This document shows, piece by piece, positions 1,383-58,339 of a stretch of DNA of 64,000 nucleotides. The notes below the pieces were generated by a model. It did no database searches and was not told the DNA's origin. It saw only the letters and a list, made by a program, of their open reading frames with translations. Origin of the DNA: an uncultured Candidatus Saccharibacteria bacterium (GTDB lineage: Bacteria > Patescibacteriota > Saccharimonadia > Saccharimonadales > Saccharimonadaceae); NCBI GenBank assembly GCA_963747455.1, contig CAVVEW010000001.1, positions 32,005-96,004 on the forward strand. Reading direction: 5' to 3'. The number at the start of each line of letters is the position of its first letter. Position 1 is the first letter of the stretch. Made by a program: the position numbers and the translations under genes.

Positions 1383-1402
1383 AACCTACACTATAGCAAA
1401 TA

Positions 1403-4102: not shown

Positions 4103-4201
4103 AGGTATATTTAACAGCATTTACGGAGAAAAAGCTAGGACAAAACAAAAACCCCCAGGTAATTAAATGGGGGTTATTGTGTTTCTCGCTACTGCGTAGT
4201 C

Positions 4202-5066
4202 TTATGGTCGCTTAAAAAGCGATCCCTGACTGTGGTACATGAGTGTACCGTTCTCGTTTACGACGTACGTCACCACGAGTGGGCCAGCTGGCGACTTGGA
4301 GCCGATAACGAGACTCGGCATTTCTTTGCCGTCGACTGTCACGGTGTCTTCGTATGTTGCTTCCCTGCCGTCGGCCATGACCATCACCTTTATGTCAGTA
4401 GAAGTATTGTACTGACCTGTCGAAGACGCACCTTTCTCATTGAACATCTTGATATTTTCGAGCCAGCGCGCGAGCAGATCGTTGCTCTGGGGGTCGGTGT
4501 CTTCAAAGAACCCGTAAGCTATCTTCGTCGCATCGCTTACACTCTATTCTGCCGTTTTTAGGCGACGGCTTCGGACCGCCATAACGTGATTAAGTATCCA
4601 TTGTGTATCCTGTTCAGCAACGGGCTTATCGTCGCTCGGGACGAGATAATCTATAAGGGCTGTTCTGGGTACATCTACAGGATTTTTGGCCGGAGCCATG
4701 ACGATCCCTGGTGCATAATTTTCATCGTCATAGAGAGCCTGAAGCTTATCGTTTAGCCAGGCCGCACGCTCAGGGGCGGGAAGTTTTTCAAAGTCGATAG
4801 ACCAATCTCTTTTTCGGTGTCTGCCGTTACTGCAACTTCTGACGGACTAGGAGGGTGTCGGCTCTGCGGATGGCGAGGCGGTACTAGGAGGGGTCTCTTG
4901 TGAAGTACTGTGGGAGATTTGGTAGGAGTGCCCTCACCTATAGCAGATGCAGGACCACCAAAGCAACCGCTTAAGTTGGCGGCAAGTGTACCCATGCCAA
5001 GAAAGATCGACGAGGTCTCCTTACTCTGTTCCAGAGTTCGTGTCGGTTAGCCATAATGATTTTCAT
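4202..5066 (-). CDS. lipoprotein of the T4SS-like operon (frameshifted)
   Basis: ATG 5066 (or 5054). MKIIMANRHELWNRVRRPRRS, then in a shifted frame FLGMGTLAANLSGC (lipobox LSGC), an S/T/P-rich linker, DWSIDFEKLPAPERAAWLNDKLQALYDDENYAPG.., and ORF 4202-4447 as the C-terminus. At least 3 frame changes. Confidence 0.4.
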
Positions 5067-5128
5067 TTCCTTTCCGCTACTATAGCGGGTTACATCATAT
5101 TGTCGTGAAACAATGTATGTTTGTGTAC

Positions 5129-5159
5129 ACTATACCGCAAATGGTTAAAAAAGTCAATA
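5129..5159 (-). promoter_or_regulatory. sigma70-type promoter, conserved cassette copy a
   Basis: Minus strand reads TATTGACTTTTTTAACCATTTGCGGTATAGT. -35 TTGACT (5152-5157), 17-nt spacer, -10 TATAGT (5129-5134). Lies upstream of the lipoprotein gene. Confidence 0.45.
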
Positions 5160-5228
5160 CCTATGTGATTTTACAAATGTATTGCTAGGGGGCGCGAGGG
5201 GGTTTAAGGCCGGTTCCGGCTACATGGT

Positions 5229-8225
5229 CTATCTGGCGGTCGATAAGGTATTCATTTGGTGTTTCGACAGCACCTTAACTCGCGAGTGCCTGGGGGTCCC
5301 CGCCGGTACGCGCACACCGAATCTCGGGTCTTCGCTATCGTCGATATGGGTATTCATGTAGTAAATTTCTTTATGGATAGGAGGACGTGGGTCGGTAGGA
5401 TCGAGGTACGATGCAAGGACATTCATGATACCGCGCTCACGATCTTTGATGCGACCCTTGAGCATTGGGTTTGATTGAGCATCTTCGATGGCACGGAGGA
5501 TGGCCTAGTCGCCTCTTTTCAGGAATACTTTCACGGAAGTCTTCATTACGGTAGAGCTGCACCATACGTCCGAGCTCGTCTGGATCCATTGTTGACATGC
5601 GTTCTGGATCGTATTTACCACTGTTTGATTCGTATGCAATTAACTGTTCACTCATCGTGCTGAAGCCCTGCTCAGCCTTTACGCGGTATTGACCAGATTC
5701 CATGAGTGATCGCTGGGTTGAGGAGACGTAGCCAACCTTGAGTGGTGAGTTTGCGATTGCATCATTCATAATCTGCTGCATGTCACGGACATAGGTAACT
5801 TCTTCGCTATTTGCATCACCAACCAACGTTTTCGATCCATCCGTATTTACCTTGAAGTACGTATCGGTCGAGTCATCTCGCTCCAGTCCAAGTGTTGCAG
5901 ACCAGTCAATAATCTTCTGCGCCGCCCAGTTATTCCCAACGCCATTCATGACGCGTTGAATAGCAGCATGAATCTGGATCTCGTTTGCCTCAGATCCGTC
6001 TCGCATTTTCTTGTTCTCAATCACATTCATGAGCTCTTGTGCTTCATACCCTTCGTTCGTGTAGACGGAGTTGTAAGCTTTGACGTTCTCCATATGGAGG
6101 GCAGAGTGCTCGGAGCGTGCTTTCGCAAGCACCTTATCGGCACCAAGCTGATCGATACCACCGGCATATTCACGCGCGGACTGATCTGTGCGGAGGCGCT
6201 TCACTTCATTTGACTTGATCATGGTATCTGCGCTTGATTTACGCTTCTCTTGCTGGGCAATATCAAAGGTCAATTGGCCGAGGCGTTGCGTACGATCATC
6301 CATGGTTTGGCTACGAAGGTATTCGTCGACACCTTTTTGGAGACCGTCAAACTCGCTACCCTGGTAGCTGTTGACGCCGGCTTCCATCTCTCGGATGATT
6401 GCTTCGAACTTGTCTTCATCACGTTTCGCCTGGCTCTTGAGTTCGCGGGTGTTAAGTGTTGCGCGGTGAACACCCTGGTCAAAGTGGTGGCTGGTTGGGT
6501 CGAGCCGATTTTGCCAGTGTGCATCACCTGCAGCCTCAACTTGACCTTGGAACGTCTCAGCCTGCTTATGGAAGTCATGCGAATCGATAGCTCGTGTCTG
6601 CATGCGACGTCCGTAGCGACTCGATTCTTCGGCGATTTCGCGCTGACGAGAGGCATCTTGCCTGTTGTCGAGATACGACTCGTTGTCTTTTTTGGTCGCA
6701 TCGCGGCGGCGCTTTTGCTGGTCAAAGCGAAGGCCGAGTCGGGCTGCACCGCGGCCACGTGGGCTGAAGCGGCTGAGTTCGCCGTTTCGTCGGCGCTCGA
6801 CATCTTGCGCGGCATTGGCGAGCTTGTTGCTCTTGTGCATATCGGCATTGTCTTGTGCCCAGTTTCTCGCTCGGTCGGTTAGCCCCTTTTGCTTGTTGTT
6901 CGCCATATTGGCGATCTGACCGAGTACACCTGTGCTGAGGCGAGTAAGGAATGGCGTCAGAGCGAGCGGGATGACCTGGACGGTGAGACCGATGAGGAGC
7001 AGTGGAATCTGCATGGCTTCCGTGGCGTCTTTTGCTGTGCCGATAATTGCCGCCCCTGCGAGTTGCGACGCACCAAAGAGGAGGGCAAATGCTGGAAATA
7101 TGATGAGAAGGTTGGTAAATAGCTTGCGCCATTTGTCAAAAATCCCACGCGTGCTCGGTAGGATAAATGCGATAAATGCCAGTGGTGCGACGGCGGTCAA
7201 GACAACAATGAGCGCCTGGCGTGCTGCTAGGACGACAAAGGCTGCGAGTACGGAAAGCGCTGCGGATATCAGGGCCGCAAATATGATGAATCCCATCGAG
7301 GCCGCACTACCACCTGCTGCTGCAGCAAAACCGGCGATACCAATCGTGCCACCACCGAGTATTACGGCAGTCATGCTCGCCCAGTCAATATCTGTTGCTA
7401 CGGTATAGTTTTCTCTAATATTTACGAGGATTGCCTGAATTGAATATCCGAGAAGGTTTGAGGCATCGACTGCAAGGGCGCAGATCCAGAATGAGACATT
7501 GACGAGGATTGCGCCGATGATGAGCCGCGGTACCATGTCCTTGATGTTGTAGTTTGAGTATCCGGCGCCGGTAATCTGAGAGTAGATAATCACCATGAAA
7601 ACGATAAGGAAGGCGACGTTTGCGATATTACGCATAAGCTCCCAGAGCTGGTAGATTGCACTGTCGGTGGTGCTGATGGTTTGTACTTCGAGGAAGTTCG
7701 AGACGATGCTATATACCCAGTCGATACCGTCTGCGAGGTAGTTTGACAAGCGGACAGACCATCCAGCCTACGCCATCGATATTACAGTTGTTGTTGCCGG
7801 TTTGATTGGTGTCTTGCGCGTCGATAGTAAGGTCACGCGTGACGGTGACGGTTTGAGGGTTTGATGCTGCTGCAGTGAGGTAGTTGCCGCTGACGATTGG
7901 ATAGGAGATGAGGATGGCGCTATCTAGCCTGAGCGGGGTTGTCGGGGCCAAAGTACAGGACATTTGCCATCAGCGAATTGCCCGATCCTGAGCGCCACTC
8001 GTATTCATTTGGGGTGTCTGTTCGATCGGGGGGTGCGGTTACTTTGGTGTAGACACTGCCGTTGTAGGTTAGCTCGGTGCCCTTCCAGATAGCATCAGCA
8101 GCAAAGGCCTCCCGCGCGAGCGGTCCGACCGTGGTGAATGCCGGCATGAGAAAACTCAGTGCCAGTAGAATAATAAAGCGCCGAAAGTGTACCCTCGGCG
8201 CGCGTTGTTTACGCGTAACCCACAT
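5229..8225 (-). CDS. giant VirB6/TrbL-like polytopic T4SS protein, paralogue 2 (frameshifted)
   Basis: Main ORF 5437-7749 (770 aa) with MVPRLIIGAILVNVSFWICALAVD and FDKWRKLFTNLLIIFP. The N-terminal ectodomain is in ORFs 7920-8225 (signal peptide MWVTRKQRAPRVHFRRFIILLALSFLMPAF) and 7709-7963 (CNIDGVGWMVCP). The C-terminus continues in ORF 5229-5465 (AILRAIEDAQSNPMLKGRIKD..) after an extra G near 5500. Confidence 0.65.
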
Positions 8226-8234
8226 TACCTACCG

Positions 8235-8265
8235 ACTGTACCATTTTACAGATGAAAAGTCAATA
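8235..8265 (-). promoter_or_regulatory. sigma70-type promoter, conserved cassette copy b
   Basis: Minus strand reads TATTGACTTTTCATCTGTAAAATGGTACAGT. -35 at 8258-8263, 17-nt spacer, -10 TACAGT at 8235-8240. Only 9 nt separate the -10 from ATG 8225, so the leader is very short or absent. Confidence 0.45.
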
Positions 8266-8350
8266 CTTTAAGGTGTATTTCACTACGTACTTTGACGGCT
8301 GCGACCAGGTATTGCATAAATCGCTTATCTCACCTATTCTAGGAGGTAGG

Positions 8351-8735
8351 ATGAAACTCAAACAAACATTCCTCGGTTTTGCAACATTTGCTGCTCTCGT
8401 AAGCAGCTCGCTTGCTGTAGCGCCTAGTGCTCACGCCCTCGAATGTACCGTCCTTCCAGATAGTATCTGTGGCAAAGCAGATAACGGTACACTCGAAAGT
8501 AGCGGTACATGGGCGTTGTTGATCTTTATAATCCAGCTGCTGACAGCGGGTGTTGGACTGGTCGCTGTGGGTATGATTGCCTATGCGAGCTTTTTGTATA
8601 CCACCGCGCAAAGTGATGAATCGCAGACCAAACAAGCTAAAGAAATGATACGAAATGTTGTTGTCGGACTACTGGTATATGCCTTTATGTGGGCAGCTGG
8701 CACAGTGGCTCATACCGGGAGGAGTATTCGCATGA
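8351..8735 (+). CDS. VirB2/TrbC-like T4SS pilin paralogue P1 (frameshifted, fused to next ORF in this assembly)
   Basis: AGGAGG then ATG 8351. Signal peptide MKLKQTFLGFATFAALVSSSLAVAPSAHA, then a two-helix hairpin. A 1-nt shift near 8695 restores ..LAQWLIPGGVFA with TGA 8733-8735 overlapping the next ATG. As given it reads through (ORF 8252-9154). Confidence 0.5.
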
Positions 8736-9154
8736 TTCGGCAAATGATGAGCGCATTTTTGATAACGGCATCGCTCGCGGGAGTGGTTGCGGTCGCGAGT
8801 CCAGCGCAAGCCTCCGCGGCCTGTGGCCGTCTCGTCACCTTCCCTGCTTGGTATAACGGCTTAACAGATAAAAATTGTGAGCTTAAGCCAGTTGGACAAG
8901 CTGACACAAGCACCGAGGTAACACTGAAAACTTTTATCGTACGCATCCTCATGAATATTATCGAGATGATTTTACAGCTCGTTGCCTATGCGGCGGTCGT
9001 CATGCTGATCATCGGTGGCTTCCAATACATCACGAGTACTGGTGACTCTGGTAATATGTCCAATGCCAAAAAGACGATTCTCAACTCTATCATCGGTTTG
9101 ATTATCTCGCTATTTTCGGTGGCGATTGTAAATATAATTGCGAATGCGTTTTAG
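8732..9154 (+). CDS. VirB2/TrbC-like T4SS pilin paralogue P2
   Basis: GGGAGGAG RBS then ATG 8732. Signal peptide MIRQMMSAFLITASLAGVVAVASPAQASA. C-terminal hairpin LVAYAAVVMLIIGGFQYITSTGDSGNMSNAKKTILNSIIGLIISLFSVAIVNII. Confidence 0.6.
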   Translation: MIRQMMSAFLITASLAGVVAVASPAQASAACGRLVTFPAWYNGLTDKNCELKPVGQADTSTEVTLKTFIVRILMNIIEMILQLVAYAAVVMLIIGGFQYITSTGDSGNMSNAKKTILNSIIGLIISLFSVAIVNIIANAF

Positions 9155-9157
9155 GCT

Positions 9158-9451
9158 ATGAAAGAACTTCTCTATTTAGCAGCAACAAAGTTAGACGCAG
9201 GATCTGTGGGCATACCGAAGGTTGATGCCGATGGAGCTTCGGTTGCTAAGTTGCTCAACGTCGTCTATTTTTGGGCGGGCATGATTGCAGTTCTTGTGAT
9301 TGTTATCGCAGGATATTACTTCGTGCTTTCAAGGGGTGATGCAAACCAAGTCACCCGTGCACGAAATGCCATCATCGCGGCCGTGGTCGGGTTGATAGTC
9401 ATACTCATGGCATTTACCATAACGCAATTTATTTTAGGAAATGTTGGATAA
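9158..9451 (+). CDS. VirB2-like pilin paralogue P3 (no obvious signal peptide)
   Basis: 97-aa ORF. Hairpin VYFWAGMIAVLVIVIAGYYFVLSRGDANQVTRARNAIIAAVVGLIVILMAF matches the shared core of its neighbours. Confidence 0.55.
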   Translation: MKELLYLAATKLDAGSVGIPKVDADGASVAKLLNVVYFWAGMIAVLVIVIAGYYFVLSRGDANQVTRARNAIIAAVVGLIVILMAFTITQFILGNVG

Positions 9452-9460
9452 GGAGACTCT

Positions 9461-9829
9461 ATGTTAAAAAAATTACGCTACACACTCGCCCTCGTTGGCC
9501 TCGGCACGACAGTATTGTTGGCACCAGCAGCACCAGCACACGCCATAAATCTATTTCCCGACTGTAAAGGATCGAGCACGGCAGTGTGCAAAGCGACAAA
9601 TAATGATAACGCTTCGTCGCTGATACAAGATATTATCAACGTGTTGCTCTTTGTTATCGGCGCGGTGGCCGTAGTGATGATAATCATCGGTGGTATCAGG
9701 TACACTACCTCAAACGGCGATTCAAATAGAACAACCGCTGCAAAAAACACGATACTGTACTCTGTAGTTGGTCTGGTGGTAGCAATTATGGCCTCGGCTA
9801 TAGTAAACTTTGTACTATCGTATTTATAA
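9461..9829 (+). CDS. VirB2/TrbC-like T4SS pilin paralogue P4
   Basis: AAGGAG RBS. Signal peptide ending APAHA. Core VLLFVIGAVAVVMIIIGGIRYTTSNGDSNRTTAAKNTILYSVVGLVVAIMASAIVNFV. Confidence 0.7.
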   Translation: MLKKLRYTLALVGLGTTVLLAPAAPAHAINLFPDCKGSSTAVCKATNNDNASSLIQDIINVLLFVIGAVAVVMIIIGGIRYTTSNGDSNRTTAAKNTILYSVVGLVVAIMASAIVNFVLSYL

Positions 9830-9853
9830 AGTTAATAAGAAACGGATTTACTC

Positions 9854-31295: not shown

Positions 31296-32129
31296 TCAGG
31301 CGGGTTGCAGTGCCTCGGGCATGACGCCAAGAGCCTGCAGGCGGAGGATGGTGAACGCGAAGCCACGACGGACCCACACCTCTGAGGTGTCGGAGCATTC
31401 TTGGCTGAACTGCGTTCGGGTCAGGCTCTTGAACTCAGCAGCACCGTCCTCGATGTCGAGACCGGAGCCCCATGCCACGTCGACGAGCTGCCCACCGAGC
31501 TGGATGTTCTCGTAGTGCCAGTAGTTGCGGTGGCCAGAGAACTGCCAGTAGCCGAGGATGAGCTCGACTTCCTTGGCGGGACGGTAGTGGCAGCCAGTCA
31601 TCTCTCCAAGATCGGCGAGTCTCACCCAGCCGCGCTGACCACGACGACGCTCCCGCGCCTTCATGCTCAGTCCTCGATGGGTTGCGAGAGGCTGTCGGGC
31701 GTAGTTGAGCCTGGGGATGTTGACTCCACGGCCCAGCTCGCCCTTGTGAATCATGCGGGCGTACTCCAGGGTCTTGCGACCACTGGGCTTGACCTGCCGT
31801 CTCGGCTGGTCGACATCCTCTTCTTCTGCGCAGACGTAGCCGAACGGCTTGTCGCTGATGTAGAGCACGTCGGGGGTGCTGTAGAGCGAGCTCAGTGTGA
31901 TGCTCTCGAGCTGGCTGTGGTCGATGCCGACGAGCCAACTGTAGTAGCCGGGGATGAGCGTACGCTCCATGACCCACATGCCGTTCGGTACGACGAAGGG
32001 GGTCTTTTCGATCACCTCATCAGCGCCAGTGTATGTACGGGGCTTCAGGCCGGACTTAATGTCCGGGTCGAGCACCCACTTCTTCTTCGTGAACGTCATT
32101 CCCTCGGGGTTGTCGGTCACTTGAACCAT
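31296..32129 (-). CDS. GC-rich orphan protein, 277 aa
   Basis: Intact ORF with RBS GGAG. Line 31621-31680 is 41/60 G+C. No family recognised. About 120-nt leader behind cassette promoter c. Confidence 0.5.
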   Translation of the reverse strand: MVQVTDNPEGMTFTKKKWVLDPDIKSGLKPRTYTGADEVIEKTPFVVPNGMWVMERTLIPGYYSWLVGIDHSQLESITLSSLYSTPDVLYISDKPFGYVCAEEEDVDQPRRQVKPSGRKTLEYARMIHKGELGRGVNIPRLNYARQPLATHRGLSMKARERRRGQRGWVRLADLGEMTGCHYRPAKEVELILGYWQFSGHRNYWHYENIQLGGQLVDVAWGSGLDIEDGAAEFKSLTRTQFSQECSDTSEVWVRRGFAFTILRLQALGVMPEALQPA

Positions 32130-32263
32130 CTCCTATGCGATACTATCGGTATATTCGTGAAGCGTATCGCCACCCCACGAACTCGCCACCTGATGCGACG
32201 AAGACAAGAGCTATCCAGCTCCTCTCTTCGCCCCATCAAACGACTCTGTTAAAGAACAGATAT

Positions 32264-32294
32264 ATATTAGCATAAATAGTATAAAAAGTCAATA
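32264..32294 (-). promoter_or_regulatory. sigma70-type promoter, conserved cassette copy c
   Basis: Minus strand reads TATTGACTTTTTATACTATTTATGCTAATAT. -35 at 32287-32292, 17-nt spacer, -10 TAATAT at 32264-32269. Confidence 0.5.
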
Positions 32295-32329: not shown

Positions 32330-33645
32330 TTAGCTCGAGTGCATTTCGCACTTCACCGGCTTCGTCCCACGGATGGACTTCCCAGAGGCACTGTCGTCTT
32401 TTTCGCCGCCAGATCCTATCGCACGTTCGATGGTTTTTTCGTGGCCTTTGCCGAGCAATATGACGACATCGTCTTTGCCTGAAACTCTGGTCATCGCGAA
32501 TTTGATAGCTTCTGGGCGGTCGAGTATGAGGAACATGTCTTTATCTTTTACTTTGCCGCTTCGCTCTGCACCTTCGGCGATTTGGATGAGGATGAGATTG
32601 CCGTCGATATCGCGGTCGTCTTCTTCGGTCAGGACGACTTCATCGCAGTATTTACCAGCAATTTCACCTTGGGTCCATCGCTTGCCTTCGTCGCGGCGGC
32701 CAGCTGAGCCAAATACCGCGATCAGTTTGCCCTTGGTGCTTTTTCGTAAATCACCGAGCAGTCGTTCGAAACTATCTGGCGTATGCGCAAAGTCGACGAT
32801 GACGCTAAAGTCTTGTCCTTCGTCGATGGTGTCCATGCGGCCTTCAACGCCCTTGAGGCTCGCAATTCCCTGCTCGATCTGTTCTTTTGATAGACCGAGA
32901 TGATGGCCGACAGTCACGGCAGCGAGACTATTTGATACGTTGAATTCACCAGGAATATTGCAGCGGATGTCGTAGCTCGTTTCGCCGATGACTGCGCTGT
33001 ACGTGCTGCCGTCACCCTGCATGTCGATAGTCGTGTGCCTGGACGTCACCCTTTGCGATACCGTAGGTTGCGCTGTGGTCGATGGCTCCAGTGAAGATAT
33101 CTGCACTCGGATCATCGGCGTTTACGACACCAAACCCGCCACGTTTGTTTGCCAAACGAAACATCGATGCCTTTGCGTCGCGGTAGCGTTCAAATGTCCC
33201 GTGGTAATCGAGGTGCTCATGGGTAATGTTCGTCATGACGGCGATCTCGTACGGGATACCCCAGACGCGGTGCTGCGCGAGCGCATGGCTGGTAGTCTCG
33301 AGTACGACCCAGTCAGCTCCTTGTAGCTTTGAACTCTTTGAGGCGGCGATTTAACAGAGGTGCCGATACGGTCGTCATGTGTGCGACTTGAGGGGTAATG
33401 TCATTGCCGACACCGTAGGCAACTGTTGTCATAAGAGCAACATTATAACCAGCATCAGCGAGCATCTTGTGAATCATGAAACTCGTCGTCGTCTTGCCGT
33501 TTGTGCCTGTTACACCGATGACATGCATGCCGCGTGCAGGAAAGCCGTAGCGGGCACTCACGAGCATTGCTTCTAGTTTGTGTCCTGTTGGTTCGATAGC
33601 CTTAAAGACGCTCATGGGCATGAGCTTTTTTAGGAGTTGTTTCAC
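32330..33645 (-). CDS. murE: UDP-N-acetylmuramoyl-L-alanyl-D-glutamate--(L-Lys or meso-DAP) ligase MurE (at least 2 frameshifts)
   Basis: GTG 33645 overlaps the upstream stop (GTGA). VIGVTGTNGKTTT P-loop, then ..TNITHEHLDYHG.. (ORF 33012-33236), then ..DFAHTPDS..FGSAGRRD.. (ORF 32330-33115). Confidence 0.75.
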
Positions 33646-34718
33646 GCTTTCAGTACCTCTTCTAGTAATATTTCGCTTGTTAATTTTCCGTTCGTCGACT
33701 TCGTGCGTAAAGTGCGGGCCGAGCAAGAGTACGACGTCATCTTTTTTGGCTGAGCGGAGGGTCAACTCGATCGACTGCTTCAGGTCGTCAGCATGGTAGC
33801 GTGCCGTTGACTTCCTCGCCCCTTGTGACGGTCACATGGTCGGCTCTGAGTCGAGAGCATGTCGAGCGTGTCGCTGTCGAAACTATCATCACAGGCGATG
33901 AGCAGACGGCGCTTGGCAATCTGCTTGAGTGAGGCCGTGACGAGATCTGCTGAACGAGATGACGGAGCACCATCGACATAGAGGGAGTACGGCTCATTGA
34001 GCGGCAATTGCTCGAGATTTCCTCGGACGGTTTCGAGCCGAGCAATCCCCTCTTGGAACTTAGAAATATCGAGTCCTAGCAGATAGCCAGCGGCGACTGC
34101 TGCGGCGACATTGTAGGCATTTGCCTTGCCAAGGAGGTAGGTCGACAGCGTCAAATTGGTTTGGTGGTCAATTGTTACTTCAATTTCTGTGCCTTTGCGA
34201 TACAGTACGACATTTCGCAGGTATGCTTCGGCAAGTTCGCTGTCGCCAAAGCTGATTTTTTGATGTGGTGCGATGGCCAAGCCTTCGGTGGCCATGCCTT
34301 CAGGAATCACGACATACGCTGACGGTGTTTCCATCACTTGCTTAGAAAGCTCGCCTTCTGAGGTGACGACCATCATTTCTACCTGGAGTGTCTCCAGTAC
34401 GCAGCTACGCAAAATAGCCGGTGTGACCGCCATGACGACCGTCTCAGCTCGTTTTTTACTCTTTGAGATGGCTCGTTGGACGGCTTCGGCGCTGGCATCG
34501 TAGCGCTCTGGGTAAGGTTCGCCATCGATGTGACTCGTTCTGTCGGTAAATACTGCAGCTGTTTGGGCATTTTCCCGTAGGAGCTCGCCGATATAGAGAG
34601 CTGTCGTCGTCGCACCGTATTCCCCCACTACCAGTATCAGCCGGACGTTACGCGACGGGTGGTTGTAACGCAATGCAGCCTTTTTGGCTCGAGCTTTCCC
34701 AAAAAAATCTCGCTTCAT
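33642..34718 (-). CDS. Mur-ligase-family protein with degenerate P-loop (frameshifted C-terminus)
   Basis: ORF 33780-34718. LILVVGEYGATTTALYIGELL occupies the GxxGKT/S position. The C-terminal ..DDVVLLLGPHFTHE.. piece is in the frame of ORF 33313-33765, and the natural end ..LLEEVLKA-TGA is in a third frame. Confidence 0.5.
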
Positions 34719-42721: not shown

Positions 42722-43859
42722 CTATACTCGTTTAGACCGAGCGTCAATGTAGTCGATAATCTTTTGTTTGAAGGCAGAAACATCGAAACGCTCGGAGCTT
42801 TCATGAAGGCTATTTACATCAAAAGTGATTGATTCAGCTTGTTGAATAGCCCCGACAACGCTCTCGACAGTTTGCTGATCAAACAAGACACCGGTTTTTC
42901 CATCTGTCACGATATCGAGGGCGCCACCAACGCCATACGCAATCACGGGCGTTCCACCTGCCATCGCCTCTACAGGAGTAATACCGAAGTCTTCCTCGGC
43001 GGGAAATAGCAAACCGCGGGCAGTGTTGTATGCTTCGGTGATACGGGCCTGGTCCACGGCCGAGGGTGTTCCTGGATAAAACGACACGGTTGGCCCGGCC
43101 AGCGCGACGAGCTTGGTCATGTTCGCTGCCGTCGCCAAACACCCGAAGCGGCAAAGAAAGTTCATTCGCGGCCAAGATTGCAAGGTCGAGCCGCTTGTAG
43201 GGAATATGACGCGAAAGTGCCATATAAAAATCACTTCGTTTTTTTGAAGGCGTAAATCGCTTTGTGTCGACAGGCGGATGTATCACATCGGCGTTTCGCT
43301 CATAGTACTGTTGTATGCGACGAGCCACGCTACTAGAGTTGCCTATAAAATAGTCTACCGATTGAGCGGCCTGAAAGTCGGCGCGCTTAAGGCGAGGAAC
43401 AAAGAGCGGCATCGTGAGCCGGATGAGCCAGTTCAGCCTCCCAAAGCCGGGGTCGGATCGGTATTGCTCGTAATGGCTCCAGTAGTAACGAATCGGCGTG
43501 TGACAGTAGCAAATATGTACTTGGTCGTCGCGCGTTTTGCGGACCTGTTTTGCTTCGGCGCTAGCGCTCGAAAGGATGACATCGTACTCCGACAGGTCAA
43601 GCTTGCGAAATGCATGAACACGAAGCATGGGAAAAAACTTATGCAGCTTGCGCAAGGGGCGCGGCAATCTTTGTAGATATGTTGTTCGTACGTCGGCATT
43701 TGCAAACGCCGGAACGTATTCCGGGGTGTATACGCTGGTATAAATTGGCGCGTCAGGGAAGGCCTCGTGAAATGCGAGCACTACTTTTTCTGCGCCGCCC
43801 ATGTTTGTCAGCCAGTCACAAACGATCGCTACTCTAGGTTGGGATTTTGTCGTACTCAT
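42722..43859 (-). CDS. glycosyltransferase family 4 (frameshift near 43180)
   Basis: ORF 42879-43859 (N-terminal domain, VAIVCDWLTNMGGAEKV) plus ORF 42722-43234 (..LLFPAEEDFGITPVEAMAGGTPVIAYGVGGALDIV..). Confidence 0.7.
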
Positions 43860-44352: not shown

Positions 44353-45786
44353 ATGCGCCGATTGGGTAAATTAGAAGTAATTGCATTTGTCACAGGATTT
44401 AGTCTGATGGCGTTTGAGCTTGCTGCTGCTCGTATACTTGCTCCAACAATTGGCAGCTCAACATATGTATGGACGAGCGTGATTGGTGTGATCATAGCGG
44501 CACTCAGTGTCGGATATTATGCCGGTGGCATCGTCGCCGACAAGCGCAACTTGGCAGCCGACGTCGCCTGGATGTTGCTCTGCTCGGCGGCTACCGTAAC
44601 GCTGACACTGCTTATTTACGAGGATCTACTCGATTCTGCGATGCACTGGCAGGTCGACGTACGCTTGCAGGCGGTGATCGTCGCGACGGCGCTGTTTGCG
44701 CCAACCAGTTTTGTGCTGGGCATGATTAGCCCATATCTTGCCAAGCTCAATGTTCGTTCACTATCTGCGTCGGGACGGTCTGTTGCATCACTGAGCGCGC
44801 TCAATTCTATCGGTGGCATCGCCGGTACGTTTGTGACAGGGTTCATTCTATTTAGTTATATCGGCTCTCGGGAAACAATCGTACTCGTTGCGCTCATGCT
44901 CCTGGTGGCTAGCTGGGTTATAGTGCCAGAGTATAGGCGTCGTTTGCGAATTGGACTGACTGCTGCGGTGCTCGTTATCATTTTTTTCTCGGATAGCTCG
45001 GTCGAGGACAGTTACTCATTCGCGCTCGAAACGCCGAGCGCACATTATGAAGTACAAGAATTCGTCTATGACGGCCTACGTGTTCGCGGTATCAGGACGG
45101 GCCCGGGAAGTATCCAGTCTGGAGTCGATATGAGTGGTTCGAGCACGCCGGTGTTTTGGTATACCCAGCAGCTCGCCCAGCTGACTCTCGACGAACAGCC
45201 GCAGCGGGTACTCGTACTGGGTGGGGGAGCATTTACGTTGCCAGAGTATCTGGGGGAGCAACTGCCAGAGGCTACTATAGATGTCGTCGAAATCGACCCG
45301 GATCTCGCACCAATCGCGCGAAACTTCTTTTATTATGACGATCCGAGCAATGTGAATCTCATATTTGACGATGCGCGCGCCTATATAAACCAGACGGATA
45401 AGCGTTACGATGTGATCATCGTCGATGTGTATGGCGATACGAGTATTCCGTTTTCACTCATGACGCGCGAATACGGCGAGGCAATCGCCGCACACCTACA
45501 AGATGACGGTGTCGTGCTGGCTAATATCGTCGGAGGTACGGTTGGCGAGTGCAGAGGGGTGTTTGATGCTTTGAGCTCAACGTATCTGAACGAGTTCAAG
45601 TACGGTCGGTACAGTACTCAGCAGCCATCGCGCGAGTTGCGCCGAGGCAATATCATAGGAGTGTATACCAATCGCGATGATGTCGACTACGGTGTGCCAA
45701 TAAAACGCATAAACAAGACGGTGTATACCGACAACTTCACGCCGTCCGAACGCCTGTACTACCAATGTCTCGCGGCTACGACGTAA
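44353..45786 (+). CDS. membrane-fused spermidine-synthase-like (aminopropyl/methyltransferase fold) protein
   Basis: N-terminal half has at least 6 TM helices. The C-terminal half has VLVLGGGAFTLPEYL...IDVVEIDP...YDVIIVDVYGD, the spermidine-synthase-type SAM-fold motifs. Confidence 0.6.
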   Translation: MRRLGKLEVIAFVTGFSLMAFELAAARILAPTIGSSTYVWTSVIGVIIAALSVGYYAGGIVADKRNLAADVAWMLLCSAATVTLTLLIYEDLLDSAMHWQVDVRLQAVIVATALFAPTSFVLGMISPYLAKLNVRSLSASGRSVASLSALNSIGGIAGTFVTGFILFSYIGSRETIVLVALMLLVASWVIVPEYRRRLRIGLTAAVLVIIFFSDSSVEDSYSFALETPSAHYEVQEFVYDGLRVRGIRTGPGSIQSGVDMSGSSTPVFWYTQQLAQLTLDEQPQRVLVLGGGAFTLPEYLGEQLPEATIDVVEIDPDLAPIARNFFYYDDPSNVNLIFDDARAYINQTDKRYDVIIVDVYGDTSIPFSLMTREYGEAIAAHLQDDGVVLANIVGGTVGECRGVFDALSSTYLNEFKYGRYSTQQPSRELRRGNIIGVYTNRDDVDYGVPIKRINKTVYTDNFTPSERLYYQCLAATT

Positions 45787-45832
45787 TCCTGATATAAAAA
45801 TAACTCACAGTATATGTGAGTGTGGTGGGTGG

Positions 45833-45865
45833 CCGGACGAGAGAGCGACGTGCTCTCTCGTCCGG
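45833..45865 (-). terminator. 14-bp GC-rich hairpin terminating the GC-rich islet genes
   Basis: CCGGACGAGAGAGC gacgt GCTCTCTCGTCCGG. A second hairpin CTCACA-gtatat-TGTGAG and a T-run follow on the minus strand. Confidence 0.6.
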
Positions 45866-45880
45866 CGTGCACCCGGTGGA

Positions 45881-46282
45881 TCAGGCGGTCTGGGCGTCGA
45901 CGCGGGATGCGACGACGATGTAGCCGATCTCGTTGTCCTTGCAGAACTGCACGAACGCCTCGTAGATCTTCGTCTTCGTGCGGATGCAGAGGCTGGCCGG
46001 CACGGTGCTGTCACCGTAGGCCAGGGCGTAGATGTAGTCGAACACGAGCACGTCGTGCTCGGGGTTCGCCCAGCCCTCCTCGGCCTGCATGGCCTTCACG
46101 ATGTCGCCGAAGGCCTCGATCTGACCGGGCGTCAGCGGCGCGTCCTTGATGACGATGGTCTTGCCGGCCGTGTCCATCTTGGCAGCGCTACGGTTGCCCT
46201 TCTTGAAGGGCTTGCGCCCACGGCGGGTGGACTTCTTGGCCTTGGCCAGGCTCTTCGTGGCCATCTCGGTGTTAGCGGTCAT
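45881..46282 (-). CDS. GC-rich orphan protein, 133 aa, Lys/Arg-rich N-terminal tail
   Basis: GGAAGGA then ATG 46282. MTANTEMATKSLAKAKKSTRRGRKPFKKGNRSAAK.. plus a globular C-terminal domain. Line 46081-46140 is 42/60 G+C, against 15/60 in flanking line 46321-46380. Confidence 0.5.
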   Translation of the reverse strand: MTANTEMATKSLAKAKKSTRRGRKPFKKGNRSAAKMDTAGKTIVIKDAPLTPGQIEAFGDIVKAMQAEEGWANPEHDVLVFDYIYALAYGDSTVPASLCIRTKTKIYEAFVQFCKDNEIGYIVVASRVDAQTA

Positions 46283-46332
46283 GGCAGGGATCCTTCCGGG
46301 TGCTAATCGCCGGGTGCGATTATGTATATATA

Positions 46333-46363
46333 ATATTACTACAAATAGCAAGAAAAGTCAATA
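46333..46363 (-). promoter_or_regulatory. sigma70-type promoter, conserved cassette copy d
   Basis: Minus strand reads TATTGACTTTTCTTGCTATTTGTAGTAATAT. -35 at 46356-46361, 17-nt spacer, -10 at 46333-46338. Confidence 0.5.
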
Positions 46364-46453
46364 CTCCAGAAAAGGAAACAGGCTCACCGACGGAGCTCTA
46401 GCTGATGGATCGAATCCATCGGCAAGCCTGTTTCCGTACGGTGAGCCGTTGGC

Positions 46454-46672
46454 TCAGGACTGCTGGCCGATGCGCGCCTTCTCGGCGCGCTTCGCCTCGC
46501 GCTCTTCGTGCTTGGCGAGTCGCCTCTTGATCTCACCAGCTGACTGGCTGACCATGAGGACGACACCGATGCAAACCACGACGGTGCCAAGTCGGTCGAA
46601 CTCCAGTCCGGCGCGGGCCAGGGCCCAGAGGAACAGCATGGCGCCGATGGTACGAGTGATCATTACTGCCAA
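46454..46672 (-). CDS. GC-rich small membrane protein, 72 aa
   Basis: MAVMITRTIGAMLFLWALARAGLEFDRLGTVVVCIGVVLMVSQ (two hydrophobic helices) plus a basic tail EIKRRLAKHEEREAKRAEKAR. Confidence 0.4.
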   Translation of the reverse strand: MAVMITRTIGAMLFLWALARAGLEFDRLGTVVVCIGVVLMVSQSAGEIKRRLAKHEEREAKRAEKARIGQQS

Positions 46673-46714
46673 CTTTCGTCGAGGGATGTATCCAGGCGAG
46701 TCCTGGTCTATTTC

Positions 46715-46745
46715 ACAATATCACAAATAACAACAAAAGTCAATA
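46715..46745 (-). promoter_or_regulatory. sigma70-type promoter, conserved cassette copy e
   Basis: Minus strand reads TATTGACTTTTGTTGTTATTTGTGATATTGT. -35 at 46738-46743, 17-nt spacer, -10 TATTGT at 46715-46720. Confidence 0.45.
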
Positions 46746-46771: not shown

Positions 46772-46818
46772 GCACTACATATAGCGTTGTAAATATGAAA
46801 CACACCACTATATAGCAC
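46772..46818. promoter_or_regulatory. NrdR-box pair 1
   Basis: GCACTACATATAGCGT (46772-46787, 13/16 to acaCwAtATaTwGtgt) and CACCACTATATAGCAC (46803-46818). Centres are 31 bp apart. Confidence 0.6.
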
Positions 46819-46886
46819 TTCTTGGGGTAGCGTAAGCAACTTAGCATTAGTTCGTTGTATTTTGTGTCAATTTGCCTATAAAAGTC

Positions 46887-46940
46887 TTGCAAATCACATA
46901 TCTAGCGTCCATAATGCTACGCAGACGCTACATATACAGT
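46887..46940 (+). promoter_or_regulatory. nrdA promoter overlapped by NrdR-box pair 2
   Basis: -35 TTGCAA (46887-46892), 17-nt spacer, -10 CATAAT (46910-46915). Box ATCACATATCTAGCGT fills the spacer (46893-46908) and box ACGCTACATATACAGT lies at 46925-46940. Centres are 32 bp apart. Confidence 0.6.
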
Positions 46941-47088
46941 AGTGCAATGAAAAACACACATTTGCAAGCGGGAGGACATATTCTCACCTGGATTCGCCAG
47001 GGGCTTATGTTCTTGCTTGCAAAGAGACGCTTTGGGAGGTGTCGGTGTGGAGGGTATAACAATCTAACTAACAAAAAAGGACTAGGGA

Positions 47089-49510
47089 ATGGACGGAATC
47101 CATGTGGTACATCGCGACGGCACCCGCGTACCATTTGACGCCAACAAGATCAACCTGGCACTTGTAAAAGCAAGTGAAGGCCTTCCTGATCAGATCAGCA
47201 AGGTAGTACAGGTTGCGACAGAGCTCCAGTTGACACTGTTTGACGGTATCACGACGGAACAGCTCGACGAGGCAGTCATCCAGACAGCGCTACAGAATAT
47301 CAAGGACGACCCTGATTTCGACAAGATCGCAGCGCGCCTACTACTAAAGAATATCTATAAGAACATTCTCGGTGATTTCGATACAAAAGCAGAGCTCAAA
47401 AAGCTCCATGCCCAGAAGTTTCCAAGCTATATCAAGAACGCAGTCGCTGATGGTTTGCTCGACAAGCGCATGAACGACGGTCGATATGACCTCAAGAAGC
47501 TCGCTGCTGCTCTGGAACCAGAGCACGACGAGCTATTTAAATATATCGGTGTGGTAACGAACAAAAACCGTTACGCACTCCGCAAAAACTCTGGCGCTCC
47601 ACTCGAGACGCCACAGTTTACCCACATGCGCATCGCTATGGGACTGGCATACAACGAAGAAGACCCAACCGCAGCGGCACTCGAGTTTTACGACCACATG
47701 GCCAAGCTCGAATACGTCACAGGTGGTTCAACTCGTGTCAACGCCGGCGGCGCATTCCCGCAACTCAGTAACTGTTTCCTCATGGAAGTCCAAGACGACA
47801 TGGAATCGATCGCAAAATCGGTTCGCGACACGATGTGGATCGCCAAGGGTACGGGTGGTATTGGTATCACTATGACCAAACTCCGTGCAGCAGGCAGCCC
47901 TGTTCAAGACGACCAACACCGAGTCAACGGGCCCAATTCCATTTATGAAGATGATCGACTCTGCGCTCTTTGCTGTCAGCCGCAAAGGCAAGAAAGCAGG
48001 CGCAGCAGCGATGTATCTCGAAAACTGGCACCTAAACTTTCCTCAATTTCTGGATCTCCGCCAAAACTCTGGCGACCCATACTTGCGTACTCGTATCATG
48101 AACACCGCCGTCTATATTTCGGACGAATTCATGAAACGCGTCGAAGCTGACAAAGATTGGTACCTATTTGACCCGGCGGAAGTATCTGACTTACCTGAGC
48201 TATATGGCGAGGAATTTTCAAAGCGTTACAACGAATACGTAAAACTCGCCGAAGCTGGCAAAATGAAGGAATTCACCTCACTCCCTGCTCGCCAGCAATT
48301 CCGACAAATCCTGACCACACTCCAGGCGACCAGCCACCCATGGCTCACATGGAAGGATACGATCAACGTTCGTGCACTCAACAACAACACCGGCACGATT
48401 CACTGTTCGAACCTCTGTACTGAGATCACACTGCCTCAAGACGAAAAGAACGTTTCTGTCTGTAACCTCATCAGCATCAACTTGAGCCAACACCTCAACG
48501 ACGACCTGAGTTTTGACTACGAGCGTATGGAAAAGAGTGTACGTGCGGCAACCCGCCAGCTCGACAACCTCGTCGACATCACCAACACGCCGATTCCAGA
48601 GGCAATGCACTCAAACTCAGCCAACCGCGCAATCGGCCTCGGCCTGATGGGCTTTACCGATGTCCTCGAACGACGCAACCACAGTTACGACAGCAAGGAA
48701 TCGTTTGATCTCATCGACGAAGTCGTCGAGTTCATCAGCTACCACGCTATCGACGAATCAGCAGAGCTCGCAAAGACTCGCGGCAGCTACGACACCTTCA
48801 AGGGAAGTGGCTGGAGCAATGGCTTGCTCCCAATCGACACGCTCGACGAACTCGCCGCATCACGCAAGACAAAGGTCAATATCACCCGCAAGCACAAACT
48901 CGACTGGGACGTCCTGCGCAAAAAGACCAAAAAGGGTATGCGAAACGCAACACTCATGGCGATTGCACCGACAGCAAACATCGGTCTCGTTGCTGGCACG
49001 ACGCCAGGCCTCGACCCACAATTTGCACAGATCTTTAGCCGAAGCACACTCAGTGGTAAATTTCTCGAAGTCAACGTCAACCTAGTAAACACACTCAAGG
49101 AAGCTGGCCTGTGGGACAAGGTAAAAGATGAAGTGCTTTCCCGCCAAGGTGATATCCAAGATATCGACGTCATTCCACAAGACATCAAAGACGTCTTCAA
49201 GACAAGTTTCCAGCTCAGCCCGTATGCCTTCATCGAAGTGGCAGCCCGAGCACAAAAGTATGTCGACCAAGCAATCAGCCGCAACATGTACCTCGATACC
49301 CGAAACATCGACGACTACATCGAGATTTATACCGAAGCATGGAGGCGCGGCCTCAAAACTACTTACTATCTGCACGTGAAACCACGACACCAAGCTGAAC
49401 AGTCAACCACTCATGTCAACAAGACTGAAGAGATGGCAAAAAGCTCTGGTGGTGCGAAACGATCTGGGTTTGGATTTGCAAAGAAACAATCGGTGGGAGG
49501 TGATGCATGA
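47089..49510 (+). CDS. nrdA: ribonucleoside-diphosphate reductase alpha subunit, class I with ATP-cone (frameshift near 47905)
   Basis: ATP-cone VVHRDGTRVPFDANKINLAL. ..NCFLMEVQDDMESI..GGIGITMTKLRAAGSPV / KTTNTESTGPIPFMKM..CSNLCTEITL.. joins ORFs 47089-48150 and 47885-49510. Confidence 0.9.
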
Positions 49511-57424: not shown

Positions 57425-57536
57425 TACCTAATCTTAGCAAATAGTTCTGTATCCACGTCGTTTTGTATACAAATAAAGTCCAAATGCTGTCTGGTAGGGA
57501 AGTGGTGCCAAAAAAAATAAGTTCAAAAATGAGTGA

Positions 57537-57574
57537 GGGGTCGGGGCGGACGCTGGTGCGTCCACCCCGACCCC
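57537..57574 (-). terminator. GC-rich terminator of the purN-like/purD-fragment islet
   Basis: GGGGTCGGGGCGGACGC tggt GCGTCCACCCCGACCCC (one bulge), followed on the minus strand by a T-rich tract. Confidence 0.65.
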
Positions 57575-57598
57575 GGTGGTAGTTCACTCGTTCGCCAC

Positions 57599-57736
57599 TC
57601 AGGCGGCGATGTCGGTCTGGTAGTGCATACCGGTGAACCGGATGAGACTGACGACCTTGTAGGCCAGGTCACGAGCCTTCTCGAGCGCGCACTCGCGACC
57701 GCCGCCTCCGACGACTGCAATCGTTTCCGGTTTCAT
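57599..57736 (-). CDS. 45-aa ORF resembling the N-terminus of PurD (GAR synthetase); probable gene fragment
   Basis: GGAAGGGA then ATG 57736. MKPETIAVVGGGGRECALEKARDLAYKV.. compared with E. coli PurD MKVLVIGNGGREHALAWKA... Stops after 45 codons. GC-rich. Below the ORF-track cutoff. Confidence 0.4.
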   Translation of the reverse strand: MKPETIAVVGGGGRECALEKARDLAYKVVSLIRFTGMHYQTDIAA

Positions 57737-57767
57737 GCTCTGTCCCTTCCGTTGAGGTAGATGGTTC

Positions 57768-58247
57768 TCAGGTCAAGCCTGTCTCCGAGGATGTCGGCTC
57801 TAGCGCCTTGATGTCTTTCGGGTCGATCTTACCGCCCAGAATCTTGGACAGCGTGTAGAGGTCGACGGTGACGGCGCGCTCGCCAGGTCGCGGCGAGTTG
57901 TCGAACTGCCTTTCGACGACGTGCAGCATCCAGCCGCTGTAGTACTGGAAGATGACCGGGTCGAAGGGCATTGCGCCTGAGGACAACAAGGCTACGTCGA
58001 TACCGTGGCCGGTGAGGACGTTGGCGATGTTCCTGCTGAACTGCCAGCAGTTCCACCCCTCTCGTGGGTAGCCATAGTGGCTACGTCTGAGGATTACGGT
58101 TTTGAGGCCGGCCTCTTTGGCTATGGCGTAGTCGGAGTTGGTGCGCTCTCCGATGACAACATCGATCCTCACTCCACGTTCGAGCAAGTTCTCCACCAGT
58201 GTGTCGTCGTAGACGAGCACTGCGAGACTCATCTCTCTGTCGCTCAC
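57768..58247 (-). CDS. GC-rich PurN-like (formyltransferase N-domain-like) protein, catalytically degenerate and truncated
   Basis: GGAG then GTG 58247. DVALLSSGAMPFDPVIFQYYSGWMLHVVER aligns with PurN DVVVLAGFMRILSPAFVSHYAGRLLNIHPS, but the N-x-H catalytic pair is replaced and the C-terminal third is missing. Confidence 0.35.
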   Translation of the reverse strand: MSDREMSLAVLVYDDTLVENLLERGVRIDVVIGERTNSDYAIAKEAGLKTVILRRSHYGYPREGWNCWQFSRNIANVLTGHGIDVALLSSGAMPFDPVIFQYYSGWMLHVVERQFDNSPRPGERAVTVDLYTLSKILGGKIDPKDIKALEPTSSETGLT

Positions 58248-58339
58248 GGTTTTCTCCGTTTCTGAATTGTGATGAACTAGCGTTTATACCACAGCGTCAG
58301 TATAGGCTATCTACTCGAGAGGAAAAAGCACGAGTGCAA

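Follow-up and report, generated by a model that had tools for sequence, protein, structure and literature searches.

An islet of ~0.95 kb, at 45.8–46.75 kb of a 64,000-nucleotide stretch of contig CAVVEW010000001.1 (the window), carries two small genes between a speE-like gene and the NrdR-controlled leader of nrdA in a soil-type Saccharibacterium of the class Saccharimonadia, the genome of which has ~50% G+C. One gene encodes a small membrane protein (unit 1) and the other a protein of 133 residues (unit 2). The comparisons below establish that these are real genes, that the islet is an insertion and that it is endemic to a few Saccharibacteria; they also establish, at the level of sequence, that the proteins diverge extremely fast while RNA hairpins, terminator sequence and a high G+C content at third codon positions (GC3) are kept. 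We lean, with a little more confidence than doubt, towards reading it as a real, lineage-restricted accessory islet of two autonomous, moron-like, high-expression units, which would comprise conflict or host-interaction genes with a maintained GC3.

Layout and authenticity of the islet

The elements of the islet are given here in the order in which they would be transcribed.

46715–46745, minus strand: putative promoter P1, TATTGACT (−35), 17 nt, TG-extended TATTGT (−10), scoring 9/12 in a consensus scan
46664–46714, minus strand: unit 1 leader, stem-loop CCAGG-ACTCG-CCTGG (46692–46706) and a weak Shine–Dalgarno (SD) sequence, GAAAG
46454–46672, minus strand: unit 1 open reading frame (ORF), 72 aa from TTG 46672 or 69 aa from ATG 46663
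46366–46453, minus strand: putative terminator T1, 21-bp stem (46374–46394 / 46415–46435), then UUUUCU
46333–46365, minus strand: putative promoter P2, TATTGACT, 17 nt, TAATAT
46283–46332, minus strand: unit 2 leader, stem-loop AATCGC-ACCCG-GCGATT (46305–46321), second GCACCCGG (46296–46303), SD GGAAGGA
45881–46282, minus strand: unit 2 ORF, 133 aa, ATG start, SD GGAAGGA
45869–45876, minus strand: post-stop element, CCGGGTGC right after the stop codon, inverse complement of the leader GCACCCGG repeats
45832–45866, minus strand: hairpin H1, perfect 15-bp GC-rich stem (45832–45846 / 45852–45866) with a 5-nt loop
45793–45831, minus strand: putative terminator T2 tail, CACCCACCAC linker, H2 (ACTCACA-TATAC-TGTGAGT) and a T-run, abutting the speE-like stop codon

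Both ORFs thus exist at the coordinates given in the original prediction, which was made by a model from the sequence letters, with the corrections that both are on the minus strand and that the smaller one is likelier to encode 69 than 72 residues. The ATG at 46663 is the likelier start because gene calling on an independent contig (L001) placed the start there and because it aligns with the start of the homologue on another contig, L080.

The islet was recovered from independent data. The 999-nt Logan contig L001 (ERR11718636) is 100% identical to the window from the NrdR box to hairpin H2, and the last ~30 nt up to the speE-like stop codon are backed indirectly by two related loci (L005 and L061) in which H2 and its T-run abut their own speE-like stop. 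A high-G+C fragment from another organism, joined into the contig by misassembly or contamination, would agree with the abrupt composition steps at both ends of the islet and with apparent frameshifts in conserved genes of the window, which hint at imperfect sequence quality. However, the identity with L001 covers the junction on the nrd side and stops only ~30 nt short of the one on the speE side, the same junction architecture is found in L080, L005, L003/L081 and L061, and AT-rich promoters and terminators are interleaved with GC-rich ORFs, which is not the pattern of a simple chimera. We therefore regard an artefact as highly improbable and the islet as genuine; chimerism at 45.8 or 46.75 kb, which the original prediction had named as a hazard, is unlikely given the identical independent contig and the recurrence of the same junctions elsewhere.

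The conserved genes that appear to be split by frameshifts lie at 47089–49510, 42722–43859, 32330–33765 and 5437–8225. They include nrdA, present as 47089–48150 plus 47885–49510 and intact at 806–807 aa in L002 and L003, as well as a glycosyltransferase gene, a murE-like gene and a large ORF in a region associated with a type IV secretion system (T4SS). The splits are either assembly indel errors or pseudogenes.

The insertion site and its neighbours

To the left of the islet, with its stop codon at 45786, lies a convergent gene for a 477-aa membrane-anchored spermidine-synthase-like protein (Pfam PF01564), the best genomic relatives of which are metagenome-assembled genomes of Saccharimonadia and Saccharibacteria (49–53% identity). 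Related loci were gathered with a 24-nt NrdR-box pattern, which is exact in 74 metagenome loci; labels such as L003 stand for related loci or contigs. In 14 of those that also hold the speE-like gene, its stop codon lies 11–87 bp from the NrdR box, and inserts between the two are present only in the window (995 bp), L003 (722 bp), L061 (922 bp), L017, L020 and L040. The locus closest to the window by NrdA (L068, 92% aa identity) has a glycosyltransferase gene at the site and lacks the islet. Because the speE-like gene abuts the nrd leader in 14 related loci, the islet is an insertion into a speE–nrd junction that is tight elsewhere, in line with the original placement of it as an insert just beside the nrd regulatory region.

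The site beside the nrd leader would gather such units in several lineages, with a speE-like gene as left neighbour in the window, L003, L005 and L061 and a tRNA gene in that place in L041, L054 and L057. No tRNA gene was found within 5 kb of the islet by ARAGORN or Rfam, no direct repeats or target-site duplication were found around it, and the neighbouring ORFs are housekeeping genes. The nrd leader itself (46779–47088) is strongly conserved, with a second box pair at ~46925–46945 and 92% identity between the window and L080 over 214 nt.

Conservation of the scaffold and divergence of the proteins

The most informative relative is L080, a 1,235-nt contig on which both islet units stand in the same order, embedded in a shared non-coding framework: nrd leader, P1, small membrane protein, T1, P2 with its leader hairpin, the gene of the 133-aa family, CCGGGTG, H1, linker and H2. 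Its identity to the window differs strongly between segments:

nrd leader: 92%
spacer between NrdR box and P1: 32% (random level)
P1: 68%
69-aa coding sequence: 56%
T1: 83%
P2: 70%
leader 2: 62%
133-aa coding sequence: 46%
T2 region: 78%

These values invert the usual rule that coding sequence is better conserved than non-coding sequence. The other carriers differ in arrangement. In L005 the homologue P0001 is convergent to the speE-like gene, and in L003 and L081 P0002 lies between the speE-like and nrd genes, the 133-aa family being present there without the membrane gene; in L080, P0003 is next to the nrd leader. Every carrier contig has Saccharibacteria neighbours (the speE-like gene or the nrd leader) and the same slot, and the proteins of the 133-aa family are 24–38% identical. 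Both genes with similar composition, a pattern that the original prediction took as telling against it if seen in all relatives, are found in some relatives only. The closely related pair L003 and L081 differ by 3 substitutions (2 of them non-synonymous) in the 495-nt ORF and by 0 in ~1,100 nt of flanking sequence (contig ends excluded), small numbers that fit fast protein evolution.

Searches beyond these loci were almost entirely negative. The 133-aa protein has nothing in Pfam, PHROGs, NCBIfam or PADLOC, nor in a word-indexed search of 5.8 billion proteins; phmmer on 1.84 billion representatives gave the single match P0001 (131 aa, L005; 38% identity, E = 1e-13), and a profile search added P0003 (148 aa, L080; 24–29% identity) and P0002 (164 aa, L003), the N-terminal domain of which is 24% identical and has the shared motifs. 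The family is marked by the motifs W-N, LV-DY, G...VP-L and E-F-Q. A six-frame hmmsearch of all 80 loci gave no additional members; profile–profile comparisons of the family with a 227-aa protein of L061 (E = 0.11) and with a protein of L033 (E = 0.28) are weak and align on the shared motif. For the 69-aa protein, no significant match was found in Pfam, PHROG, NCBIfam or PADLOC, and its sole homologue is P0004 on L080 (47% identity). Neither protein matches phage records (tblastn) or IMG/VR (peptide-pattern search plus tblastn), and the leader and T1 DNA motifs have 0 matches in IMG/VR. Across the 5.8e9 and 1.84e9 proteins searched, P0001–P0004 are the only known homologues of both islet proteins, so that the homology search called for by the original prediction ended without a homologue outside Saccharibacteria contexts. 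On these searches, both families are restricted to a few Saccharibacteria.

Base composition and codon bias

The islet has a G+C content of 61–66%, with 100-nt windows of 45.80–46.70 kb at 0.60–0.69, against 50.2% for the 64 kb as a whole (200-nt windows: mean 0.502, sd 0.051). The composition changes sharply at both islet ends; between the genes it falls to a trough of 0.41 at ~46.30–46.40 kb, and past 46.65 kb it is 0.32–0.40. The counts reported earlier for single lines of the sequence were exact (42/60 at 46081–46140 and 15/60 at 46321–46380).

The bias is concentrated at third codon positions. G+C at positions 1/2/3 is 0.54/0.44/0.95 in the 133-aa ORF and 0.67/0.44/0.81 in the 72-aa ORF; the GC3 values of 0.947 and 0.806 (binomial p = 3e-27 and 6e-7, respectively) compare with 0.524 ± 0.059 (maximum 0.636) in 30 long genes of the window, and of the 77 islet codons in two-fold families 76 have G or C at the third position, where the reference genes have it in ~50%. 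The codon-usage comparison proposed in the original prediction therefore shows a strongly atypical coding composition. It was made with GC3 and two-fold codon counts in place of a codon log-likelihood, as the log-likelihood of synonymous choice under resident usage, which is nearly flat, gave no discrimination.

High GC3 is a property of the family: 0.95 in the window, 0.97 in L005, 0.93 in L080 and 0.74 in L003, in the midst of host genes at ~0.52–0.69. Synonymous differences among the members are at the saturation level (proportion of synonymous differences, pS, ~0.41) expected under a constraint to G or C only. The ratio of non-synonymous to synonymous change (dN/dS; method NG86) is 1.3–1.8 among window/L005/L080 pairs and 0.9 for the window against L003, values that are to be read with the cap that the G/C constraint places on pS.

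Promoters and leaders

The original prediction had noted a promoter cassette before each gene, and TATTGACTTTT is indeed found exactly at 46353–46363 and 46735–46745 (minus strand), one copy per ORF, each 17 nt from its −10 element (TAATAT or TATTGT, respectively). Near-consensus sigma-70 sites were called at 46715–46743 and 46333–46361 on the same strand, P1 and P2 are 78% identical over 40 nt, and the layout of P2 recurs in L005, L080, L003, L033 and L061. Strict TTGAC-N18-TAnnnT sites number 8 in the 64 kb (1.6 expected); three of the eight appear to drive GC3-rich ORFs, the third such promoter lying at 32264–32292, before a 277-aa ORF (GC3 0.79), and two further strict sites are in the T4SS-associated region. 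Since sites of this type also lie before another ORF of the window and in the T4SS-associated region, the islet promoters probably belong to a resident strong type.

The leader of unit 2 has the clearest signature of a conserved RNA structure. Its stem is AATCGC/GCGATT in the window, GGTCGC/GCGACC in L005, GGTTGC/GCAACC in L080, GACTGC/GCAGTC in L003 and GGTCGC/GCGCCC in L033. Across these five cassettes, 96.7% of positions are paired and both-sided changes occur at 4 of the 6 pairs; the covariation score was reached by 0 of 500 shuffles, and slid controls were 20–50% paired. Sequence is conserved as well in the loop, ACC(C/A)G, and in the GCAC(C)CGG after it. In the window, L005 and L080 alike, the unit 2 leader has GCACCCGG twice, and the inverse complement of GCACCCGG stands after the stop codon. 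In the leader of unit 1, L080 has a different hairpin, TCCGAGAAGGTCTCGGA, in the equivalent place. Rfam 15 gave no family for the leader or for T1 at gathering score, and the sub-threshold matches were to microRNA precursors only, as expected of any long hairpin.

Hairpins and terminators

Between the genes, T1 folds with −46.8 kcal/mol (z = −7.4) and, from its sequence, is probably the terminator of the unit 1 gene; three G–U pairs in the stem make it specific to the minus strand. The nested inter-gene structure of the original prediction is thus real, and its coordinates need a small shift: GCCTGTTTCC lies at 46426–46435 (not 46424–46433) and the inner palindrome, which is present, at 46404–46420 (not 46403–46419). 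Upstream in the T1 region, GGCTCACCG would allow an alternative pairing with the 3′ arm. T1 is conserved in sequence in L080, at the 83% identity given above, and the more distant L003 has an exact copy of the 21-nt 3′ arm behind a different gene. A T-arm-like sequence in the T1 loop, GATGGATTCGATCCATC, was considered as a tRNA or att site and rejected, as ARAGORN and Rfam found no tRNA there and the L080 loop differs.

After unit 2, the window, L005 and L080 all have CCGGGTG directly behind the stop codon despite their differing surroundings; a role for CCGGGTGC is one that we infer. The GC hairpin that had been placed at 45833–45865 is present as H1, with a stem of 15 rather than 14 bp. Between the window and L080, 5 of the 15 pairs of H1 are changed on both sides and none is broken, and L005 and L061 have hairpins of other sequence at the H1 place. 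H2 and its T-run were picked up by a terminator scan; the linker and H2 are exact in L080, and the H2 architecture is found also in L005 (twice) and L061. No Rfam family was found for the post-stop element, H1 or H2. An 11-nt inverted match links ACAGTATATGT and ACATATACAGT, at 45807–45817 (the H2 loop) and 46930–46940 (the second NrdR-box region), and is probably due to chance.

Predicted structures of the two proteins

In an AlphaFold2 model, residues 1–45 of the 133-aa protein are disordered and K/R-rich and are followed by three helices over residues 51–115 (predicted local distance difference test, pLDDT, 78–87), consistent with the K/R-rich N-tail and globular domain that had been expected from the sequence. 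The model against PDB and BFVD structures gave no fold match below E = 1, and the profile against PDB sequences gave a best E of at least 0.48; as modelled, the globular part would be a novel three-helix domain.

The 69-aa protein has two hydrophobic helices in its hydropathy profile, a turn with the conserved sequence RAGLEFD and a C-terminal helix that is long and charged, and AlphaFold2 predicts helix 2–17, a turn and helix 24–68 running into the charged tail (pLDDT 72). The two transmembrane (TM) helices and tail that had been assigned to it were therefore recovered by both approaches, and the model suggests a helical-hairpin membrane protein with a charged C-terminal helix.

Those two helices bring in a lytic or toxic reading, in which the 69-aa protein would form pores in the manner of a holin or a type I toxin and would have the 133-aa protein as regulator or antitoxin, with phage exclusion as one example of a use. 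The small protein has the outline of a class II holin, and its best PHROG match is to a holin/anti-holin family (E = 0.29, non-significant), with Pfam matches that are faint and below cut-off; in L041, a GC-rich cargo with 4 TM helices at this site matches a mycobacteriophage holin at E = 0.01, also below cut-off, and a DNA-binding product could use the GCACCCGG repeats on either side of the 133-aa gene as operators. However, the two genes form no operon, being separated by a 21-bp terminator and a separate promoter, L003 has the 133-aa family but not the membrane gene, the neighbouring ORFs include no endolysin or phage gene, no PADLOC or toxin–antitoxin family is matched, and an unregulated pore former driven by a strong constitutive promoter would kill the cell. 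We consider a toxic module improbable.

Interpretation

The plan of each unit, under the reading of an accessory islet of autonomous units, would be a near-consensus sigma-70 promoter (TATTGAC, 17 nt, TAnnAT), a short leader with a stem-loop, a small GC3-saturated ORF and one or two long hairpins with a U-run. Bacterial mRNAs are stabilised by 5′ stem-loops, as in the ompA, ermC and aprE leaders. Given the consensus promoter, the 5′ stem-loop, the good SD (unit 2) and the tandem 3′ hairpins, this architecture may serve constitutive, high and stable expression, with the 5′ and 3′ hairpins protecting the mRNA ends. The proteins are hypervariable and small, have membrane or basic-tail features and invite the analogy with phage morons; they would accordingly be conflict or host-interaction factors under diversifying pressure, functionally like morons. 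The islet may be kept and exchanged by homologous recombination through its conserved flanks (the nrd leader and the terminators), as Saccharibacteria are naturally competent and live on Actinobacteria (PMC10633639). The G/C bias would then be imposed by a directional force, either selection on mRNA or DNA or biased conversion, and would not be a leftover of import, because the trace of a passive import would be expected to fade over so much divergence.

The principal alternative is a recent horizontal capture from a high-G+C donor (the actinobacterial host or its phage or plasmid), the genes having come under resident-type promoters, and it is close to what the original prediction proposed. 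The GC3 of 0.81–0.95 and the 76 of 77 G/C-ending two-fold codons look actinobacterial, the distribution among relatives is patchy, and Saccharibacteria are naturally competent epibionts of Actinobacteria (PMC10633639). A 3-kb GC-rich block beside a tRNA gene in L057 encodes a 553-aa protein that resembles Streptomyces phage proteins over residues 1–35, and a GC-rich cargo elsewhere is weakly SnoaL-like. The SnoaL-like family is common in Actinobacteria. Against capture, searches of actinobacterial, phage and metagenome proteins gave no homologue outside Saccharibacteria, the full unit with its AT-rich promoter and leader hairpin is common to family members of 24–38% identity in the same slot, and GC3 shows no decay even though silent sites are saturated. 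Of the original prediction, the mosaic, the atypical composition and the resident-type promoters stood, and the recent capture did not find its donor; nor does the proposed history sit well with the promoter, leader hairpin, ORF family and 3′ hairpins recurring together, in the same slot and with similarly extreme GC3, in four other Saccharibacteria lineages. As the unit recurs as a whole, the ORF has moved or evolved along with its promoter, and its GC3 is no sign of a fresh import. Since L057 indicates that imports from high-GC sources do occur in this group, we keep recent capture as unlikely, but as the most serious of the alternatives.

Several points weigh against our reading of a maintained, lineage-restricted islet. 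The relatives are short metagenomic contigs of 1–1.7 kb, on which vertical descent is inseparable from repeated allele replacement. The 133-aa family comprises five sequences only, and the promoters and terminators of the islet are consensus or sequence matches only. No recombinase, direct repeats or target duplication mark mobility, recombinases elsewhere in the window not having been searched for systematically. The dN/dS values are uninformative, since GC3 saturation caps pS, and known cases of bacterial biased conversion and translational selection have much smaller effects than the bias seen here. The codon usage of the islet is as expected of an actinobacterial gene, and repeated, independent acquisition from an unsampled high-GC pool with the same AT-rich promoters may have taken place.

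Comparison with known systems

Morons are stand-alone units with their own promoter and terminator that usually encode small accessory or conflict proteins (PMC3594210). Like phage morons such as the HK97 gene 15 unit, the islet units come with a promoter and a factor-independent terminator of their own; related genomes lack them at the position between two conserved genes that they occupy, and their G+C departs from that of the flanking genes (0.61–0.66 against 0.50). Three of four moron features are therefore present and phage residence is absent: the islet sits in a cellular chromosome between housekeeping genes rather than in a prophage, and no significant PHROG matches and no matches to phage records or viral contigs were found. 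The islet also differs in that its deviation is extreme and persists across deeply diverged members, with a scaffold better conserved than the ORFs.

Acquired ORFan islets resemble it in atypical codon usage, patchy distribution, small hypothetical proteins and an intergenic position beside conserved sequence; they differ in that no donor lineage is detectable here, no integrase, tRNA or direct-repeat hallmarks are present at the site, and the same family occupies one slot in several diverged hosts, its GC3 unameliorated. Integron cassettes are alike in that small, unrelated ORFs stand in a row with an imperfect hairpin behind each, and in their variable content at one chromosomal site, whereas each islet ORF has its own promoter, the hairpins carry U-runs as terminators and no integrase or attI was found near the site (attC cores and intI were not specifically modelled). 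The 69–72-aa product shares with class II holins its two hydrophobic helices, tight turn and charged C-terminus, and differs from them in having no significant match, no lysis cassette, no dual-start motif and a constitutive-looking promoter. Unlike a type II toxin–antitoxin pair, the islet genes do not appear to be co-transcribed and are not always together, the family standing alone in L003/L081.

The leader hairpin resembles mRNA stabiliser stem-loops in its position ahead of the SD and within a few nucleotides of the predicted 5′ end, and in the conservation of its structure; it departs from them in the sequence conservation of the loop ACC(C/A)G and of GCAC(C)CGG, and in the inverted copy after the stop codon. 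The conserved loop and the inverted copy of the leader motif hint at an extra, specific interaction. In the literature searched we found no description of GC3-saturated stand-alone units in Saccharibacteria, which is not proof of absence.

Further GC-rich units and the T4SS cluster

Saccharibacteria, like other Patescibacteria, are obligate epibionts. To our knowledge, their T4SS, although essential, has no known substrates, and their host-interaction genes are largely not known. The combination of consensus promoter, 5′ hairpin, small GC3-saturated ORF and long terminator could serve as a signature for host-interaction or conflict candidates, marking a pool of strongly expressed, lineage-specific, fast-evolving protein candidates. 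It also poses an evolutionary puzzle, with silent sites at >90% G/C in genomes of ~50% G+C and proteins at 25–40% identity, which population metagenomes could address; if such a bias is actively maintained, inferring "recent horizontal transfer" from base composition would lead astray in these genomes.

A broader version of this idea is that the islet belongs to a Saccharibacteria-wide class of stand-alone, hyper-evolving, GC3-saturated ORFan units with G/C codons that are actively maintained by selection and not inherited, acting on or expressed in the actinobacterial host, possibly as T4SS effectors with R/K tails. A T4SS-associated operon in the window has the same TATTGACTTTT promoter type; we rate this version as speculative and rather improbable. 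The T4SS-like cluster (1400–9830) contains three T4SS_pilin/TrbC genes at 8252–9829 on the plus strand (PF18895) and a 770-aa polytopic membrane ORF at 5437–7749 on the minus strand, with TATTGACTTTT-type promoters at 8235–8263 and 5129–5157 (minus strand). Their sequence suggests that the cluster and the islet may share a strong-promoter class or regulon.

Two other GC-rich units are present in the window. The second unit, at 31296–32294, consists of a 277-aa ORFan (GC3 0.79) with a TATTGACTTTT promoter at 32264–32294, a ~150-nt leader and a hairpin terminator; nothing was found for the protein in Pfam, PHROGs, NCBIfam, PADLOC or phage records. The third, at 57530–58260, has a 159-aa ORF (GC3 0.80) and a 45-aa ORF on the minus strand, with a GC hairpin and T-run at ~57530–57590, and it gave no family match.

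Stand-alone small ORFs with GC3 of 0.79–0.95 were also observed in related loci, several of them directly upstream of the nrd leader and beside a tRNA gene: L054 12900–13800, L047 88–456, L041 8593–8985 and 1618–2037, L024 8194–9054, L046 289–657 and L003 4599–5006. Searches of 10 other GC-rich cargos against Pfam, PHROGs, NCBIfam and PADLOC gave none over the cut-offs, only a weak SnoaL-like match (L054_144) and faint holin-like matches. L054 has two tandem paralogues, L041 a 4-TM protein and L024 a secreted-looking 276-aa protein, and L054_144 and L041_139 form a SnoaL-like pair (45% identical), with the L054_144 match being weak. The GC-rich block of L057 lies at 5400–8600 of the oriented copy, near nrd, with 62–69% G+C; the match of residues 1–35 of its 553-aa protein to Streptomyces phage proteins is at 63% identity (E = 5e-5), and a 148-aa ORF with a helix-turn-helix is present as well. 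This block may be either a phage-derived import or a chimeric contig.

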